A stretch of DNA of 4,829 nt from a virus (Duplodnaviria; Heunggongvirae; Uroviricota; Caudoviricetes), in the IMG/VR virus record IMGVR_UViG_2690316099_000010; one strand, written 5' to 3'. Numbering within the stretch: the first letter of the stretch is position 1; each line of letters opens with the position of its first letter. Below, piece by piece: positions 1-4,829 of this stretch. The notes under the pieces were generated by a model that saw nothing but the letters and a program-made list of their open reading frames with translations, was not told the origin of the DNA and ran no database searches. The position numbers and the translations under genes are program-made.

Positions 1-28
1 ACACTATCAATAAGTTGGAGTCATTACC
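1..28 (+). mobile_element. IS1 terminus (right inverted repeat end), element body lies left of the window
   Basis: Positions 1-28 (ACACTATCAATAAGTTGGAGTCATTACC) match the 3' end of IS1 as I recall it (ending GGAGTCATTACC) and are the perfect reverse complement of 4799-4826. The identity runs to the window edge, so the element is cut by the window. Orientation is from memory of the IS1 convention. Confidence 0.8.
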
Positions 29-437
29 CGTTAAAACATCTGCAGATAATGACGTTGACTTGGATACAGATGGATTCAGACAACTGAGGATATCGTGCCC
101 ATCCCCTTCTGCCAGCGGTGCGATTATATTGAGAAAAGCTTCTTATGAATTCGGCAAAAGTATAGGTGTATTTGATTTTGCAAACAATGCATCACCAGCG
201 ACGATGACATTTTTGNNNNNNNNNNNNNNNNNNNNNNNNNNNNNNNNNNNNNNNNNNNNNNNNNNNNNNNNNNNNNNNNNNNNNNNNNNNNNNNNNNNNN
301 NNNNNNNNNNNNNNNNNNNNNNNNNNNNNNNNNNNNNNNNNNNNNNNNNNNNNNNNNNNNNNNNNNNNNNNNNNNNNNNNNNNNNNNNNNNNNNNNNNNN
401 NNNNNNNNNNNNNNNNNNNNNNATTAATGATGATTAA
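29..437 (+). CDS. Hypothetical protein, 5' end interrupted or bounded by IS1; AT-rich, unknown function; interior masked (216-422)
   Basis: The frame is open from the IS1 junction with no stop across 29-215 (62 codons, improbable by chance in ~41% GC DNA), while both other + frames and all three - frames contain stops. The same absolute frame resumes after the mask and stops at TAA 435-437 (end ...INDD). A terminator follows 8 nt downstream. No family recognised. The TTG at 15 in the ORF track lies inside the IS1 repeat and is not a credible start. Confidence 0.3.
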
Positions 438-444
438 TATATAA

Positions 445-469
445 GCCGCCAGAAATTGGCGGTTTTTTT
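445..469 (+). terminator. Rho-independent terminator: 6-bp GC-rich stem (446-451 CCGCCA / 457-462 TGGCGG), 5-nt loop GAAAT, then T7 run 463-469
   Basis: Hairpin and U-tract read directly from the sequence, 8 nt after the stop at 435-437. The A-rich stretch ATATAA immediately upstream allows weak function in the opposite direction too. Confidence 0.6.
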
Positions 470-474
470 ATAGT

Positions 475-478
475 GGAG
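475..478 (+). promoter_or_regulatory. Shine-Dalgarno (GGAG) for the CDS starting at 484
   Basis: GGAG sits 5 nt upstream of ATG 484. Confidence 0.55.
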
Positions 479-483
479 ACAGT

Positions 484-2013
484 ATGGACTTACCTTCTTT
501 ACCTTCTCTTTCTTCACTCTTTTCTGCATCTTCAGGTATCAATTGGCGCGATAATCTTTACGACGCTTCATTTCGTGGCGTTCCGTTTTCGGTGGAGAGC
601 GACGAGGGTTCGTTCGGACGCCGCGTTCAGGTCCATGAATACCCAAACCGTGACAAACCGTACACGGAAGATCTCGGGCGTGCCACGCGACGGCTGACGA
701 TTAATGCGTATCTCGTTGGTGATGATTACGCAGAGCAGCGCGACAGGCTGATTACAGCGATTGAAACCGCCGGGCCGGGGACGCTGATCCATCCGCAGTT
801 CGGTGAAATGCAGGGCTGTATTGACGGGCAGGTGACCGTTTCTCACTCCGGCACTGAAGGCCGTATGTGCCGGGTTTCATTTCAGTTTGTTGAGAGCGGG
901 GAACTGTCATTTCCGGTCGCCGGAGCTGCAACCGCCAGAAAACTGGAGGAGTCGTCCGTATTCCTGGATGAGTTGATTGAAGACATGTTCGGCGATTTTG
1001 ATCTCGCGGGAATACCGGACTTTATTCAGAACGATGTTATTGCCCGGACGACCGATATGCTGGGAACCGTTCAGACAGCTTTCAAAATGGTTAATTCGGC
1101 TGTTTCTGCCGGAGCGAGACTACTGCAGGGCGATTTATCCGTCATTCTGATGCCGCCGTCGGTTGCCAGTGATTTTGTGCATACGTTGCAGGATACCTGG
1201 CGGGCCGGAACCNNNNNNNNNNNNNNNNNNNNNNNNNNNNNNNNNNNNNNNNNNNNNNNNNNNNNNNNNNNNNNNNNNNNNNNNNNNNNNNNNNNNNNNN
1301 NNNNNNNNNNNNNNNNNNNNNNNNNNNNNNNNNNNNNNNNNNNNNNNNNNNNNNNNNNNNNNNNNNNNNNNNNNNNNNNNNNNNNNNNNNNNNNNNNNNN
1401 NNNNNNNNNNNNNNNNNNNNNNNNNNNNNNNNNNNNNNNNNNNNNNNNNNNNNNNNNNNNNNNNNNNNNNNNNNNNNNNNNNNNNNNNNNNNNNNNNNNN
1501 NNNNNNNNNNNNNNNNNNNNNNNNNNNNNNNNNNNNNNNNNNNNNNNNNNNNNNNNNNNNNNNNNNNNNNNNNNNNNNNNNNNNNNNNNNNNNNNNNNTG
1601 GTGGTTCCACTGAACGTCAGTCCGATATTATTCACGTTTCTCATCCGGCACTTGACAGCGTGGCAGCCAGCACAGGACAGGATGAGAGAGCGCAACCACC
1701 CACGCGGGAAAATCTCACCATCATACGCGAATCGCTGAACGCGGCGATTGAACAGGAGCTCAGGCGTACGGCGGATGACAGGCTGTTTTTTCAGCTGACG
1801 TCATTACGTACAGAACTGAACCGGGATATTCAGGCGCGTCTGGTTCAGACGGAGGAAACCGCAGAGCGAACGCCAGCGGAAGTTCTGCCTGCGCTTGTTC
1901 TGGCTGCGTCATGGTACGACGATGCGTCCCGTGAAACTGATATCCTGGATCGAAATGCCATCTCTCATCCGGGCTTTGTTCCGGTCAGGGCATTAAGGGT
2001 ACCCGTCAGATGA
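484..2013 (+). CDS. Phage Mu gp43 (N)-like DNA circulation protein / tail-associated protein; interior masked (1213-1598)
   Basis: 509-codon frame with a good RBS. The N-terminal region (INWRDNLYDASFRGVPF...GRRVQVHEYPNRDKPYTEDLGRATRR...YLVGDDY) matches the conserved motifs I recall for the DNA-circulation N-terminal family. The visible N- and C-terminal parts lie in the same absolute frame either side of the mask, and the stop TGA 2011-2013 overlaps the next start (ATGA). Size is close to Mu N (about 490 aa). Confidence 0.8.
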   Translation: MDLPSLPSLSSLFSASSGINWRDNLYDASFRGVPFSVESDEGSFGRRVQVHEYPNRDKPYTEDLGRATRRLTINAYLVGDDYAEQRDRLITAIETAGPGTLIHPQFGEMQGCIDGQVTVSHSGTEGRMCRVSFQFVESGELSFPVAGAATARKLEESSVFLDELIEDMFGDFDLAGIPDFIQNDVIARTTDMLGTVQTAFKMVNSAVSAGARLLQGDLSVILMPPSVASDFVHTLQDTWRAGTXXXXXXXXXXXXXXXXXXXXXXXXXXXXXXXXXXXXXXXXXXXXXXXXXXXXXXXXXXXXXXXXXXXXXXXXXXXXXXXXXXXXXXXXXXXXXXXXXXXXXXXXXXXXXXXXXXXXXXXXXXXXXXXXXGGSTERQSDIIHVSHPALDSVAASTGQDERAQPPTRENLTIIRESLNAAIEQELRRTADDRLFFQLTSLRTELNRDIQARLVQTEETAERTPAEVLPALVLAASWYDDASRETDILDRNAISHPGFVPVRALRVPVR

Positions 2014-3086
2014 ATGATACCGTTTTACTTCGGGTTTCCGGTCGCGAATGGGGCGGCTGGACATCCGTCCGTATCAGTGCGGGCATTAACCGTATTGCCC
2101 GGGATTTTAATGTTGCCATTACCACCCGCTGGCCCGGAAGCCGGGATTATCAACCCCGGATAAAAAATGGTGAGCTGGTTGAAGTGCTTATCGGGGATGA
2201 GCCTGTGCTCACCGGATATGTGGAGGCACTACCGCTTCGTTATGACGCCAGCAGCGTCAGCATGGGAATTGTCGGGCGAAGCAAAACAGCCGATCTGGTT
2301 GACTGCTCTGCTTTGCCACTCCAGCAGAGCGGAAAAAACCTGCTCAGAATAGTCAGTGAACTGGCTGCGCCATTTGGCATCACCGTTGTTGATGCTGGCG
2401 TGCCGCAGACAGCGGTGATTGATGCCCAGCCGGAACACGGCGAAACCGTTGCCGATTGTCTTAACCGGTTACTGGGGCAGGTTCAGACGCTGGCTTATGA
2501 CGATGAATGCGGGCGACTGGTTCTGGGAAAACCCGGAACAGGTAAAGCGGCGACGGCGCTGGTGCTGGGAGAGAATATTCTTTCCTGTGACACGGAAAGA
2601 AGCATCAGAGAGCGGTTTTCTGAATATCAGGTCAGTGGGCAGCGCCCGGGCAACGACGATGATTTTGGTGAGGCCACCATTGCCGCAATACGTCAGACCA
2701 TTCAGGACAGTGGCGTGACCCGTTATCGCCCTTTGTTGATTCAGCAGTCAGGCACAGCAACGACAGCAACCTGTAAGGCCCGTTGTGAATTTGAAGCGCG
2801 CCAACGGGCTGCGCTTACCCGTGAGACAACATATACGGTTCAGGGCTGGCGGCAGGGCAGTGGCGCGTTATGGCGTCCGGGGTTATCTGTCATCGTTTTC
2901 GACCCGCTGAATAATTTTGATAATGATGAACTGGTGATCGCAGAAGTTACCTATAACCAGGACGACCGGGGCACGACGACTGAATTACGGGTTGGCCCGG
3001 CAGATGCTTATCTCCCCGAGCCTGTTACCGCCAGGAAGAAAAAAATGTTGAGGAGGATTTCTGATGAACGGGTTTTCTCTTCGTAA
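2010..3086 (+). CDS. Phage Mu gp44 (P)-like baseplate hub protein (late control D-type tail protein family)
   Basis: Uninterrupted 358-codon frame, fully visible. The ATG overlaps the upstream stop in an ATGA, which indicates translational coupling. Size and position immediately after the N homolog fit Mu gene order. Family call is from remembered similarity and synteny, not a search. Confidence 0.75.
   Translation: MNDTVLLRVSGREWGGWTSVRISAGINRIARDFNVAITTRWPGSRDYQPRIKNGELVEVLIGDEPVLTGYVEALPLRYDASSVSMGIVGRSKTADLVDCSALPLQQSGKNLLRIVSELAAPFGITVVDAGVPQTAVIDAQPEHGETVADCLNRLLGQVQTLAYDDECGRLVLGKPGTGKAATALVLGENILSCDTERSIRERFSEYQVSGQRPGNDDDFGEATIAAIRQTIQDSGVTRYRPLLIQQSGTATTATCKARCEFEARQRAALTRETTYTVQGWRQGSGALWRPGLSVIVFDPLNNFDNDELVIAEVTYNQDDRGTTTELRVGPADAYLPEPVTARKKKMLRRISDERVFSS
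3051..3056 (+). promoter_or_regulatory. Shine-Dalgarno (AGGAGG) for the CDS starting at 3064
   Basis: Perfect AGGAGG sits 7 nt upstream of ATG 3064, inside the 3' end of the preceding gene. Confidence 0.65.
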
Positions 3087-3165
3087 TCTGATTTCCCGGG
3101 CTGTCATCACGGCGGTGGATTCCGCCAGAAAGTGTCAGTCTGTAGGGTTGAAAATGATAGCCGGA
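3064..3165 (+). CDS. Phage baseplate assembly protein V / Mu gp45-like spike protein, 5' portion only; 3' end lost in masked region
   Basis: Strong RBS, ATG at 3064, and an N-terminus (MNGFSLRNLISRAVITAVDSARKCQSVGLKMIAG) resembling the gpV-family start pattern. Position after the P homolog fits Mu-like order. Only 34 codons are visible; the ORF-track length of 447 aa is an artefact of translating N. Confidence 0.55.
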
Positions 3166-3801
3166 NNNNNNNNNNNNNNNNNNNNNNNNNNNNNNNNNNN
3201 NNNNNNNNNNNNNNNNNNNNNNNNNNNNNNNNNNNNNNNNNNNNNNNNNNNNNNNNNNNNNNNNNNNNNNNNNNNNNNNNNNNNNNNNNNNNNNNNNNNN
3301 NNNNNNNNNNNNNNNNNNNNNNNNNNNNNNNNNNNNNNNNNNNNNNNNNNNNNNNNNNNNNNNNNNNNNNNNNNNNNNNNNNNNNNNNNNNNNNNNNNNN
3401 NNNNNNNNNNNNNNNNNNNNNNNNNNNNNNNNNNNNNNNNNNNNNNNNNNNNNNNNNNNNNNNNNNNNNNNNNNNNNNNNNNNNNNNNNNNNNNNNNNNN
3501 NNNNNNNNNNNNNNNNNNNNNNNNNNNNNNNNNNNNNNNNNNNNNNNNNNNNNNNNNNNNNNNNNNNNNNNNNNNNNNNNNNNNNNNNNNNNNNNNNNNN
3601 NNNNNNNNNNNNNNNNNNNNNNNNNNNNNNNNNNNNNNNNNNNNNNNNNNNNNNNNNNNNNNNNNNNNNNNNNNNNNNNNNNNNNNNNNNNNNNNNNNNN
3701 NNNNNNNNNNNNNNNNNNNNNNNNNNNNNNNNNNNNNNNNNNNNNNNNNNNNNNNNNNNNNNNNNNNNNNNNNNNNNNNNNNNNNNNNNNNNNNNNNNNN
3801 N

Positions 3802-3938
3802 GCTGTGATTATTTCGCTTTTTACATGGCGGCGTGCCGGGCGTGATGATGCACCACGGATATTTGGATGGTGGGGGGATACCTGGCCTGCGGTTCAGAAT
3901 GATCGCACGGGGTCGCGTTTGTATCTGTTGCGACGCAG
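3802..3938 (+). CDS. Phage GP46-family baseplate protein (Mu gp46-like), internal fragment between two masked blocks
   Basis: The visible frame AVIISLFTWRRAGRDDAPRIFGWWGDTWPAVQNDRTGSRLYLLRR carries the GWWGD ... GSRL(W/Y)LL motif I associate with the GP46 family, and sits in the expected position between the gpV-like and J-like genes. Both ends are masked. Confidence 0.5.
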
Positions 3939-4375
3939 NNNNNNNNNNNNNNNNNNNNNNNNNNNNNNNNNNNNNNNNNNNNNNNNNNNNNNNNNNNNNN
4001 NNNNNNNNNNNNNNNNNNNNNNNNNNNNNNNNNNNNNNNNNNNNNNNNNNNNNNNNNNNNNNNNNNNNNNNNNNNNNNNNNNNNNNNNNNNNNNNNNNNN
4101 NNNNNNNNNNNNNNNNNNNNNNNNNNNNNNNNNNNNNNNNNNNNNNNNNNNNNNNNNNNNNNNNNNNNNNNNNNNNNNNNNNNNNNNNNNNNNNNNNNNN
4201 NNNNNNNNNNNNNNNNNNNNNNNNNNNNNNNNNNNNNNNNNNNNNNNNNNNNNNNNNNNNNNNNNNNNNNNNNNNNNNNNNNNNNNNNNNNNNNNNNNNN
4301 NNNNNNNNNNNNNNNNNNNNNNNNNNNNNNNNNNNNNNNNNNNNNNNNNNNNNNNNNNNNNNNNNNNNNNNNNNT

Positions 4376-4798
4376 CTTGCCAGAAATCTGTTACCGGACG
4401 TGTGTGATGAAGACTGGCTGTACCGGCACGCCAGAATCAAACGCTGCCCGCGAAAAGAAGCGGTGGCAGCCCGGGGATTTGTGCGCTGGGATGGCGTAGA
4501 GGGGACGCCGGTATTGCCAGCGGGAACGCAGATCCAGCGTGATAATCAGGTGACCTTTACCACGACGGCGACGGTGACCGCAGCCGATGGTCTTCTCCGG
4601 GTGCCTGTTGTGGCAGACGAACCGGGATCGGCGGGGAATACGGATGATGGTATTGCCATGCAACTGGGAACACCCGTCAGTGGTCTGCCGTCCACAGGGT
4701 ACGCTGACACCATTACAGACGGTGAAGATATTGAAAATCTGGAAATATGGCGTGCCCGCGTTATGGAACGTTATTACTACATTCCACAGGGGGGCGCA
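4376..4798 (+). pseudogene. Baseplate J-like protein (Mu gp47 family), 5' end in masked region, coding frame interrupted by IS1 at 4798/4799
   Basis: This frame (phase of 4376) is not in the ORF track because it has no stop inside the window. It translates without stops to ...RKEAVAARGFVRWDGVEGTPVLPAGTQIQRDNQVTFTTTATVTAADGLLRVPVVADEPGSAGNTDDG...TDGEDIENLEIWRARVMERYYYIPQGGA, matching the Baseplate_J pattern as I recall it. The frame then runs straight into the IS1 terminal repeat, and the expected C-terminal third is absent. Confidence 0.7.
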
Positions 4799-4829
4799 GG
4801 TAATGACTCCAACTTATTGATAGTGTTTT
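4799..4829 (-). mobile_element. IS1 terminus (right inverted repeat end, reverse orientation), element body lies right of the window
   Basis: 4799-4826 (GGTAATGACTCCAACTTATTGATAGTGT) is the perfect reverse complement of 1-28 and matches the IS1 end as recalled. The following TTT is consistent with continuation into IS1 (TTTATG...). Confidence 0.8.

Follow-up and report, generated by a model that had tools for sequence, protein, structure and literature searches.

The window, that is, the whole analysed stretch of 4,829 nucleotides, is a piece of about 4.4 kb from a defective phiP27-like prophage in the chromosome of Shigella sonnei, and the IS1 tips that frame it very probably mark two independent, simple insertions, with the contig broken inside both copies. 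The evidence for this conclusion was observed directly and comprises sequence identity, element lengths, target-site duplications, colinearity, and lineage distribution. The readable sequence comes in five pieces that total 3,164 nt and take in the two IS1 junctions, and it matches S. sonnei 53G (HE616528.1) at 100% identity. Four further runs are masked by Ns (216-422, 1213-1598, 3166-3801, and 3939-4374), and these masks exceed the DNA that they replace in identical genomes by 27, 138, 136, and 63 nt, respectively. Given that the masks are longer than the replaced DNA, the true IS1-to-IS1 spacing is 4,406 bp rather than 4,770 bp; the preliminary description, which placed about 4.77 kb between inverted IS1 copies, was thus right about the inverted pair and wrong about the distance. 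Neither window junction was found in 5,426 complete E. coli genomes, because Shigella lies outside that collection, and the left junction had no match in a species-representative genome collection or a metagenome collection.

Positions 1-28 and 4799-4826 (28 nt each) are 100% complementary when read as reverse complements, and a 28-mer search of the window matched these two sites alone, with 0 matches expected from 200 shuffles. Both arms correspond to the same, insB-distal IS1 terminus (GGTAATGACTCC...), including the insB stop codon, and their sequence matches thousands of annotated IS1 elements; the right arm has 31 nt, since IS1 sequence runs on to position 4829. The left element lies on the plus strand and the right element on the minus strand, and both read into the window. 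The perfect pairing of the two tips and their common IS1 origin, as initially described, are therefore borne out by the complementarity, the 28-mer search, and the comparison with the 768-bp element. When taken as a clue to the k-mer size of the assembler, the arm lengths of 28 and 31 nt matched no specific assembler.

As the window shows the tips of IS1 alone, the completeness of the elements and their orientation towards the outside were read from complete genomes with identical junctions. Both window junctions are reproduced exactly in four closed chromosomes (loci L004, L007, L008, and L009) and two drafts (L003 and L011), and in all six both IS1 copies are full length at 768 bp, the right copy in draft L003 measuring 767 bp. 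Locus L005 contains the left junction and, by probe, two full-length IS1 copies. The left and right copies are identical to each other at 768/768 positions in L004, L008, L009, and L011. The 768-bp element carries the insA ORF, the A6C frameshift motif AAAAAAC at position 307, and the insB' frame, and the genes called at the IS1 copies match the Pfam families Zn_ribbon_InsA, HTH_Tnp_IS1, and DDE_Tnp_IS1. When its two ends are aligned, the termini form the imperfect inverted repeats GGTGATGCTGCC... and GGTAATGACTCC..., and both window arms represent the GGTAATGACTCC end. A length of about 768 bp, imperfect terminal inverted repeats, the insA/A6C/insB' arrangement, and a 9-bp target-site duplication are all present, as is characteristic of IS1. 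The full-length copies that the preliminary description had proposed to look for hence exist at both sites in complete S. sonnei genomes, and in S. sonnei genomes with both copies they form the inverted, inward-facing pair around a block of baseplate genes that it had described.

Each of the two elements is accompanied by its own target-site duplication. The 9-bp sequence CGTTAAAAC borders the left IS1 at either end, and the 9-bp sequence GGGGGCGCA the right IS1, the latter having been scored in every locus where the far IS1 end was read. In E. coli FDAARGOS_944 (L001), whose prophage is free of IS elements, nothing interrupts the two insertion sites, and CGTTAAAAC and GGGGGCGCA are each present as a single copy; CGTTAAAAC is also single-copy at the empty left site of L006 and L012. 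The outer flanks are colinear with the prophage of L001, and the 9-nt overlaps fall exactly at the duplications. The tape-measure gene is located to the left of the left IS1, and the remainder of the J/gp47 gene to the right of the right IS1. The features of the window are compiled in Table 1.

Table 1. Features of the window (positions refer to the 4,829-nt stretch; L-numbers denote the loci compared)
Feature	Position	Strand	Remarks
Left IS1, last 28 nt (insB-distal terminal inverted repeat)	1..28	+	Positions 741-768 of the 768-bp IS1 at L004 7417-8184
Inner copy of left IS1 duplication CGTTAAAAC	29..37	.	Other copy abuts the far IS1 end in L003-L005, L007-L011
AT-rich 160-aa moron gene, 3' part (from ~nt 102 of 483)	29..437	+	Split by left IS1; 216-422 masked
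Terminator-like hairpin and T-run after moron gene	443..475	+	L006 8572-8594 plus T tail, mapped onto window
Mu N-type DNA circularization/tail protein gene	484..2013	+	Pfam PF07157, E=3e-36; real length 1,392 nt; 1213-1598 masked
Mu P/gp44-type baseplate hub gene	2010..3086	+	Pfam GpP-like domains; exact protein in S. sonnei genomes
Mu gp45-type baseplate assembly protein V gene, then gp46 start	3064..3801	+	PF06890 at L004 11055-11588; mostly under mask 3166-3801
GP46 gene, visible part	3802..3938	+	PF07409 at L004 11594-12004
Baseplate J/gp47 gene, visible part	4375..4798	+	PF04865 on intact L001 protein
Inner copy of right IS1 duplication GGGGGCGCA	4790..4798	.	Other copy at the far IS1 end in L003, L004, L006-L012
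Right IS1, last 31 nt (same insB-distal end)	4799..4829	-	End of the 768-bp IS1 at L004 12591-13358

According to the Pfam matches, the genes for N (DNA_circ_N), the P/gp44 hub, gp45/V, gp46, and J/gp47 follow one another in the order of a Mu-type or phiP27-type module. At about 3032-3038 the hub gene has A7 where relatives have A8, and this difference alters its last codons. The J/gp47 gene is cut by the right IS1 after about nt 594 of 1,083, and its C-terminal part resumes beyond the element in L004. At the left junction, the AT-rich DNA had been ascribed to an IS1-mediated rearrangement. This explanation is refuted: the DNA belongs to a native moron gene of IS-free E. coli prophages, which has merely been split by IS1. 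Similarly, the tape-measure gene that seemed to be missing upstream of the Mu N homolog was found immediately beyond the left IS1. The intact moron gene occupies 11900-12382 in L001 and 8084-8566 in L006, and 11 complete E. coli genomes have it, free of IS1, in the interval from the tape-measure gene to N; it is missing from phiP27, in which N starts 15 nt after the tape-measure gene. The gene corresponds to PHROG 5586 (unknown function), matched no Pfam family and no PADLOC family, and has nine homologues, all of them hypothetical. An AlphaFold model of the moron protein reached a mean pLDDT of 40.7, which is too poor for a fold search.

The two IS1 copies are also separated by their distribution. 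Two Lineage 1 genomes of S. sonnei, L006 (CP180280, genotype 1) and L012 (CP179997, genotype 1.5), carry the right IS1 only, whereas Lineage 2 genomes carry both copies, and the two insertions therefore took place at different times. No other IS is as abundant in Shigella as IS1, whose insertion sites vary between lineages and which accounts for the largest share of the 229-348 IS insertions in Shigella reference chromosomes (Hawkey et al., 2020; PMC7373316). The pattern observed here is in line with a proposed burst of IS1 on the branch leading to lineages II and III (PMC7373316).

Very probably, each IS1 copy entered the prophage on its own, by simple transposition of the ordinary kind. The host prophage, phiP27-like with an HK97-type head and a Mu-type contractile tail, was already defective. 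The older, right element landed in the baseplate J/gp47 gene, and the younger, left element about 100 nt into the AT-rich moron gene that follows the tape-measure gene and precedes the Mu N homologue. Each insertion created its own 9-bp duplication and knocked out the gene that it struck, with nothing else being moved, and the inverted, mutually facing arrangement of the two copies is due to chance. Because IS1 is present in very high copy number in this genome, short-read assemblies break inside both elements, and the small contig that results ends on both sides in a few dozen nucleotides from one and the same IS1 terminus; we infer that the window is a short-read contig broken at this high-copy repeat. 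The exact P protein is present in 348 collection blocks, and in 274 of them the longest contig that encodes it measures only 2-5 kb, as is to be expected of assemblies broken at the two IS1 copies.

An inverted pair of identical elements could also act as an invertible segment, as suggested in the preliminary description, with recombination between the copies flipping the 4.4-kb baseplate block, either as a fixed state or as heterogeneity within the population. The substrate for such an event is present, namely two inverted, 768-bp IS1 copies of 100% identity that are located 4.4 kb apart, and IS-associated inversions are frequent on Shigella branches, to which 103 of 114 reconstructed inversions were assigned (PMC8072062). 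The IS1-to-segment junctions are, moreover, the same in either orientation of the segment, and an inverted state in the window's own strain would be compatible with them. However, the order outer-left (+), IS1 (+), inner (+), IS1 (-), outer-right (+) was recovered in all loci, and the segment was inverted in none of the eight loci carrying both IS1 copies. Each element has also kept matching duplications on its two sides, which a net inversion would part, and the loci revealed neither both orientations nor exchanged duplication halves. Given that the prophage was already defective, a flip would have no evident consequence. We consider an inversion very improbable on these grounds, and the earlier suggestion is not upheld. 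The search also covered a Gin-type invertase switch for this Mu-like module, which was rejected: no resolvase/invertase family was present among the Pfam matches of the called genes within 10 kb on either side, and the repeats are whole IS elements. An alternative view, in which the arms stem from isolated IS1 ends or from faulty assembly rather than from two real elements, could draw on the mere 28 and 31 nt of IS1 visible in the window and on L010 (CP029794.1), in which the IS1 copies are internally shortened to 464 and 449 bp. The full-length IS1 at both sites in four closed chromosomes and two drafts, along with the left junction and the two complete copies in L005, make it very improbable.

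IS1 composite transposons occur with direct copies of the element, as in Tn9, or with inverted copies, as in Tn1681. The segment resembles them in that a pair of the same IS brackets a few kilobases, with inverted copies as in Tn1681, and the preliminary description raised the possibility of a composite transposon. On this reading, two IS1 copies would have carried the baseplate block into its site as one unit, bringing the AT-rich DNA along. Yet there is no single outer duplication around the segment: the sequences at the two outer ends differ (CGTTAAAAC vs GGGGGCGCA), and each recurs at the inner end of the IS1 that it abuts. Cargo and surroundings form a continuum, as the interior and the exterior together rebuild an uninterrupted phiP27-like tail module of one colinear prophage, and the Lineage 1 genomes hold the same segment in place with one IS1, in agreement with different arrival times of the two copies. 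Neither an IS1 junction nor the unit itself was found in a different context in the 5,426 complete E. coli genomes or the 10 loci examined. IS-free relatives display the same gene order without IS1, the very outcome that the preliminary description had set against its own proposal. The probability of this scenario is negligible, and a composite transposon is refuted as the history of the segment. Because the junctions are alike in both orientations and only about eight long assemblies were inspected, we assign a slight chance to flipping of the block at low frequency in S. sonnei populations or to Tn1681-like movement of the unit. Short-read assemblies would make neither event visible.

The window is an instance of the IS1 insertions known for the S. 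sonnei chromosome (population survey of Hawkey et al., 2020; PMC7373316), and those of the reference strain 53G (HE616528.1) are identical to it in sequence, junctions, 768-bp elements, 9-bp duplications, and gene inactivation, without any difference. The Stx2e phage phiP27 (NC_003356) shares 96.7% nucleotide identity over 80% of the query and, in P27p47-p53, the same order of tape measure, N-type, hub, V, gp46, J, and gp48 genes. Unlike the Shigella prophage, phiP27 lacks both IS1 and a gene separating the tape-measure gene from N, whereas head genes of the Shigella prophage have been deleted or broken by other IS elements. The Gin/G segment of Mu and the Cin system of P1 likewise place an inverted repeat inside a Mu-type tail gene region. 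However, tail-fibre genes are switched there by a serine invertase that acts at short crossover sites, whereas the repeats found here are whole IS1 elements in baseplate genes.

The insertions described here are ordinary IS1 insertions that were already known from published genomes. They carry little biological weight, being a further example of the documented IS1 expansion that erodes Shigella genomes, in this case within an already dead prophage. The presence of one or two IS1 copies could serve as a minor marker by which Lineage 1 is told apart from Lineage 2 and perhaps from further lineages. On a more general note, where the tips of a small contig are reverse complements of each other and correspond to a high-copy IS, the usual cause is an assembly that broke at repeats rather than a mobile or invertible unit. 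Such cases can be decided quickly from the target-site duplications and from empty sites in related genomes.

The segment is part of a prophage tail module into which IS1 has inserted by two simple transpositions, one 9-bp duplication apiece, and each copy disrupts one gene of an already defective prophage. Its tips had been described as perfect reverse complements from the same IS1 terminus, which held: ACACTATCAATAAGTTGGAGTCATTACC at the left end recurs as an exact reverse complement at the right, and a search of the window for this 28-mer (up to three mismatches) returned these two sites only, with 0 expected from 200 shuffles. The arm sequence matches thousands of places annotated as IS1 family in complete E. 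coli genomes, as well as IS1 features with curated annotation in records of phage P1. A complete IS1 from a related genome measures 768 bp and carries the insA ORF and the insB' frame, with the A6C frameshift motif at position 307; its terminal repeats are unequal (GGTGATGCTGCC... versus GGTAATGACTCC...), and both arms correspond to the GGTAATGACTCC end, directly after the insB stop codon. The left IS1 therefore lies on the plus strand and the right one on the minus strand, both reading into the segment. When window positions 1-56 were compared with E. coli matches H42-H55, some IS1-end matches ran past the 28-nt arm to ~54 at 84-88% identity, with flanks weakly similar to positions 29-56. Given that ~49,000 IS1 places were searched, this similarity is probably due to chance or to IS1 preference for AT-rich targets.

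The best matches in complete E. coli genomes cover exactly 29..4799 and end there. In E. coli FDAARGOS_944 (locus L001), the matching DNA belongs to a prophage with an HK97-type head, a Mu-type tail and no IS1, and its genes run in the order tape measure, a 160-aa hypothetical gene, DNA circularization protein (Mu N type), baseplate hub (Mu P/gp44 type), V (gp45), GP46, J/gp47, YmfQ/gp48 and tail fibres, the family of every baseplate protein being confirmed by Pfam. Among sequenced phages, the Stx2e phage phiP27 comes closest (96.7% identity, covering 80% of the query); its gene order is the same, except that the 160-aa gene is lacking and N directly follows the tape-measure gene. An exact-protein lookup with the only gene free of masked bases found its product in closed chromosomes, including HE616528.1 of S. 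sonnei 53G, and the five unmasked pieces (3,164 nt, both IS1 tips included) are 100% identical to this strain. Compared with FDAARGOS_944, the GP46 stretch is only 89% identical and the remaining four unmasked pieces 99.9-100%; this stretch is a small patch of mosaicism between prophages that otherwise hardly differ. In addition, a poly-A run is A7 in the window and S. sonnei and A8 in FDAARGOS_944; the frameshift replaces the six C-terminal residues of the baseplate hub (NVEEDF) with 13 others (MLRRISDERVFSS) and lets the ORF continue into the V gene for 22 nt. Each of the masked N runs is longer than the corresponding DNA of the 100%-identical S. sonnei genomes, and the real spacing between the IS1 copies is therefore 4,406 bp rather than 4,770; window coordinates and ORF lengths are likewise inflated, the N gene appearing as 509 aa instead of 463 aa.

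Coordinates of features in the window and in related prophage loci
Feature	Sequence	Coordinates	Remark
Left IS1 tip	window	1-28	28 nt, all that the window holds of this copy
Right IS1 tip	window	4799-4829	31 nt, all that the window holds of this copy; arm 4799-4826
3' part of 160-aa gene	window	29-437	AT-rich
Terminator-like hairpin	window	443-475	
Gene used for exact-protein lookup	window	2010-3086	
Poly-A run	window	~3032-3038	
GP46 stretch	window	3802-3938	
Masked run	window	216-422	207 nt for 180 nt (excess 27)
Masked run	window	1213-1598	386 nt for 248 nt (excess 138)
Masked run	window	3166-3801	636 nt for 500 nt (excess 136)
Masked run	window	3939-4374	436 nt for 373 nt (excess 63)
Intact 160-aa gene	L006 (CP180280)	8084-8566	
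Intact 160-aa gene	L001	11900-12382	
Shortened IS1	L010 (CP029794.1)	7721-8184	464 bp; lacks ~212-515
Shortened IS1	L010	12590-13038	449 bp; lacks ~213-530
Decayed prophage regions	L004 (53G)	1-3020, 17900-20100	
Altered right neighbourhood	L007 (CP044151.1)	17970-21077	
Regions with ISEc60 insertions and frameshifted ipaHe	L001	1-8000, 21275-22916	

Five loci (L004, L007, L008, L009 and L011) contain exact copies of both junctions, and in each the arms belong to 768-bp IS1 elements, confirming the full-length copies anticipated by the preliminary description; since closed genomes are among them, the notion that the arms are solo IS1 end fragments is contradicted. The two copies are mutually identical in L004, L008, L009 and L011. 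A draft (L003) has both junctions with a right IS1 of 767 bp; in L005 the left junction is present and probes detect two full-length copies. The L010 copies are internally shortened with differing deletion end points, probably an assembly artefact at the repeat, the alternative being real internal deletions.

The left IS1 interrupts the 160-aa gene after ~100 nt and is bordered on either side by CGTTAAAAC, while the right IS1, which splits the 1,083-nt J gene at nt ~594, is bordered by GGGGGCGCA; in the IS-free prophage each 9-mer is single and uninterrupted at the corresponding site. This separate pair for each element speaks against the composite transposon proposed earlier, and transposition as one unit is further contradicted by colinear flanks and by genomes with one IS1: outside the left copy lie the first ~100 nt of the 160-aa gene and then the tape-measure gene, outside the right copy the remainder of J, gp48 and fibre genes. 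Inversion by recombination between two identical inverted copies is mechanistically possible, such events are common in Shigella (PMC8072062), and the junctions of the window would look alike in either orientation in its own strain. However, outer and inner flank probes gave uniform order and strand in 10/10 loci, no inversion was seen in the eight that carry both copies, and the duplications are unswapped. The structure shows all IS1 defining features tested and is an IS1 member; judged by their own defining features, it is neither a composite transposon nor the invertible segment first suggested.

The two simple insertions also differ in age. In L006 and L012 (CP179997) the right IS1 is present and the left site is empty and intact; a strain table (PMC12511311) assigns these genomes to genotypes 1 and 1.5 of Lineage 1, and two genomes with both copies, CP179990 (2.3) and 53G (2.8), to Lineage 2. 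The right insertion therefore came first, with the left one following the Lineage 1 split, which makes arrival as one composite transposon impossible. This timing fits a burst of ~45 IS1 insertions proposed on the branch to lineages II and III (PMC7373316).

At the left junction, the AT-rich stretch previously regarded as foreign material displacing the tape-measure gene is instead native: it is the 3' portion of the 160-aa gene, which in 11 complete E. coli genomes (95-100% identity) separates the tape-measure gene from N and has no IS1. Like phiP27, most other relatives lack this gene, and N directly follows the tape-measure gene in them. Its low G+C content, its own terminator-like hairpin and an N-terminus resembling a signal peptide give it the look of a moron. 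The gene belongs to PHROG 5586, a family of unknown function, had no match in Pfam or PADLOC, and has nine homologues, all hypothetical, among them proteins from Yersinia enterocolitica and from Escherichia phage vB_EcoM-720R4 (49% identity for the latter); its predicted structure (mean pLDDT 40.7) is too poor for use. IS1 inactivates it in S. sonnei genomes with the left copy.

Decay of the prophage extends beyond IS1. In S. sonnei, everything between the prohead protease and the start of the sheath gene has given way to an IS3-family element, with an IS4 upstream; in 53G, the genes that run from major capsid to tail terminator in L001 are absent. The right end adjoins smpB in this strain, which suggests integration at ssrA, and beyond the tail-fibre genes on that side L007 carries an integrase and other genes instead of smpB-ratA-ratB, through either rearrangement or another inserted element. 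L001 itself carries two ISEc60 insertions, one in the portal gene and one in the sheath gene. Its ipaHe effector gene, at the prophage end, is frameshifted; at the matching position of locus L002 this gene is intact.

Given that Shigella reference chromosomes contain 229-348 IS insertions, with IS1 as the largest share (PMC7373316), and that the longest contig carrying the exact P protein spans only 2-5 kb in 274/348 collection blocks, the window is probably a short-read contig broken within both IS1 copies, which would give a real length of ~4.47 kb. The structure is already known from the published 53G reference genome, and its two insertions exemplify a phenomenon that population-scale work has documented before.
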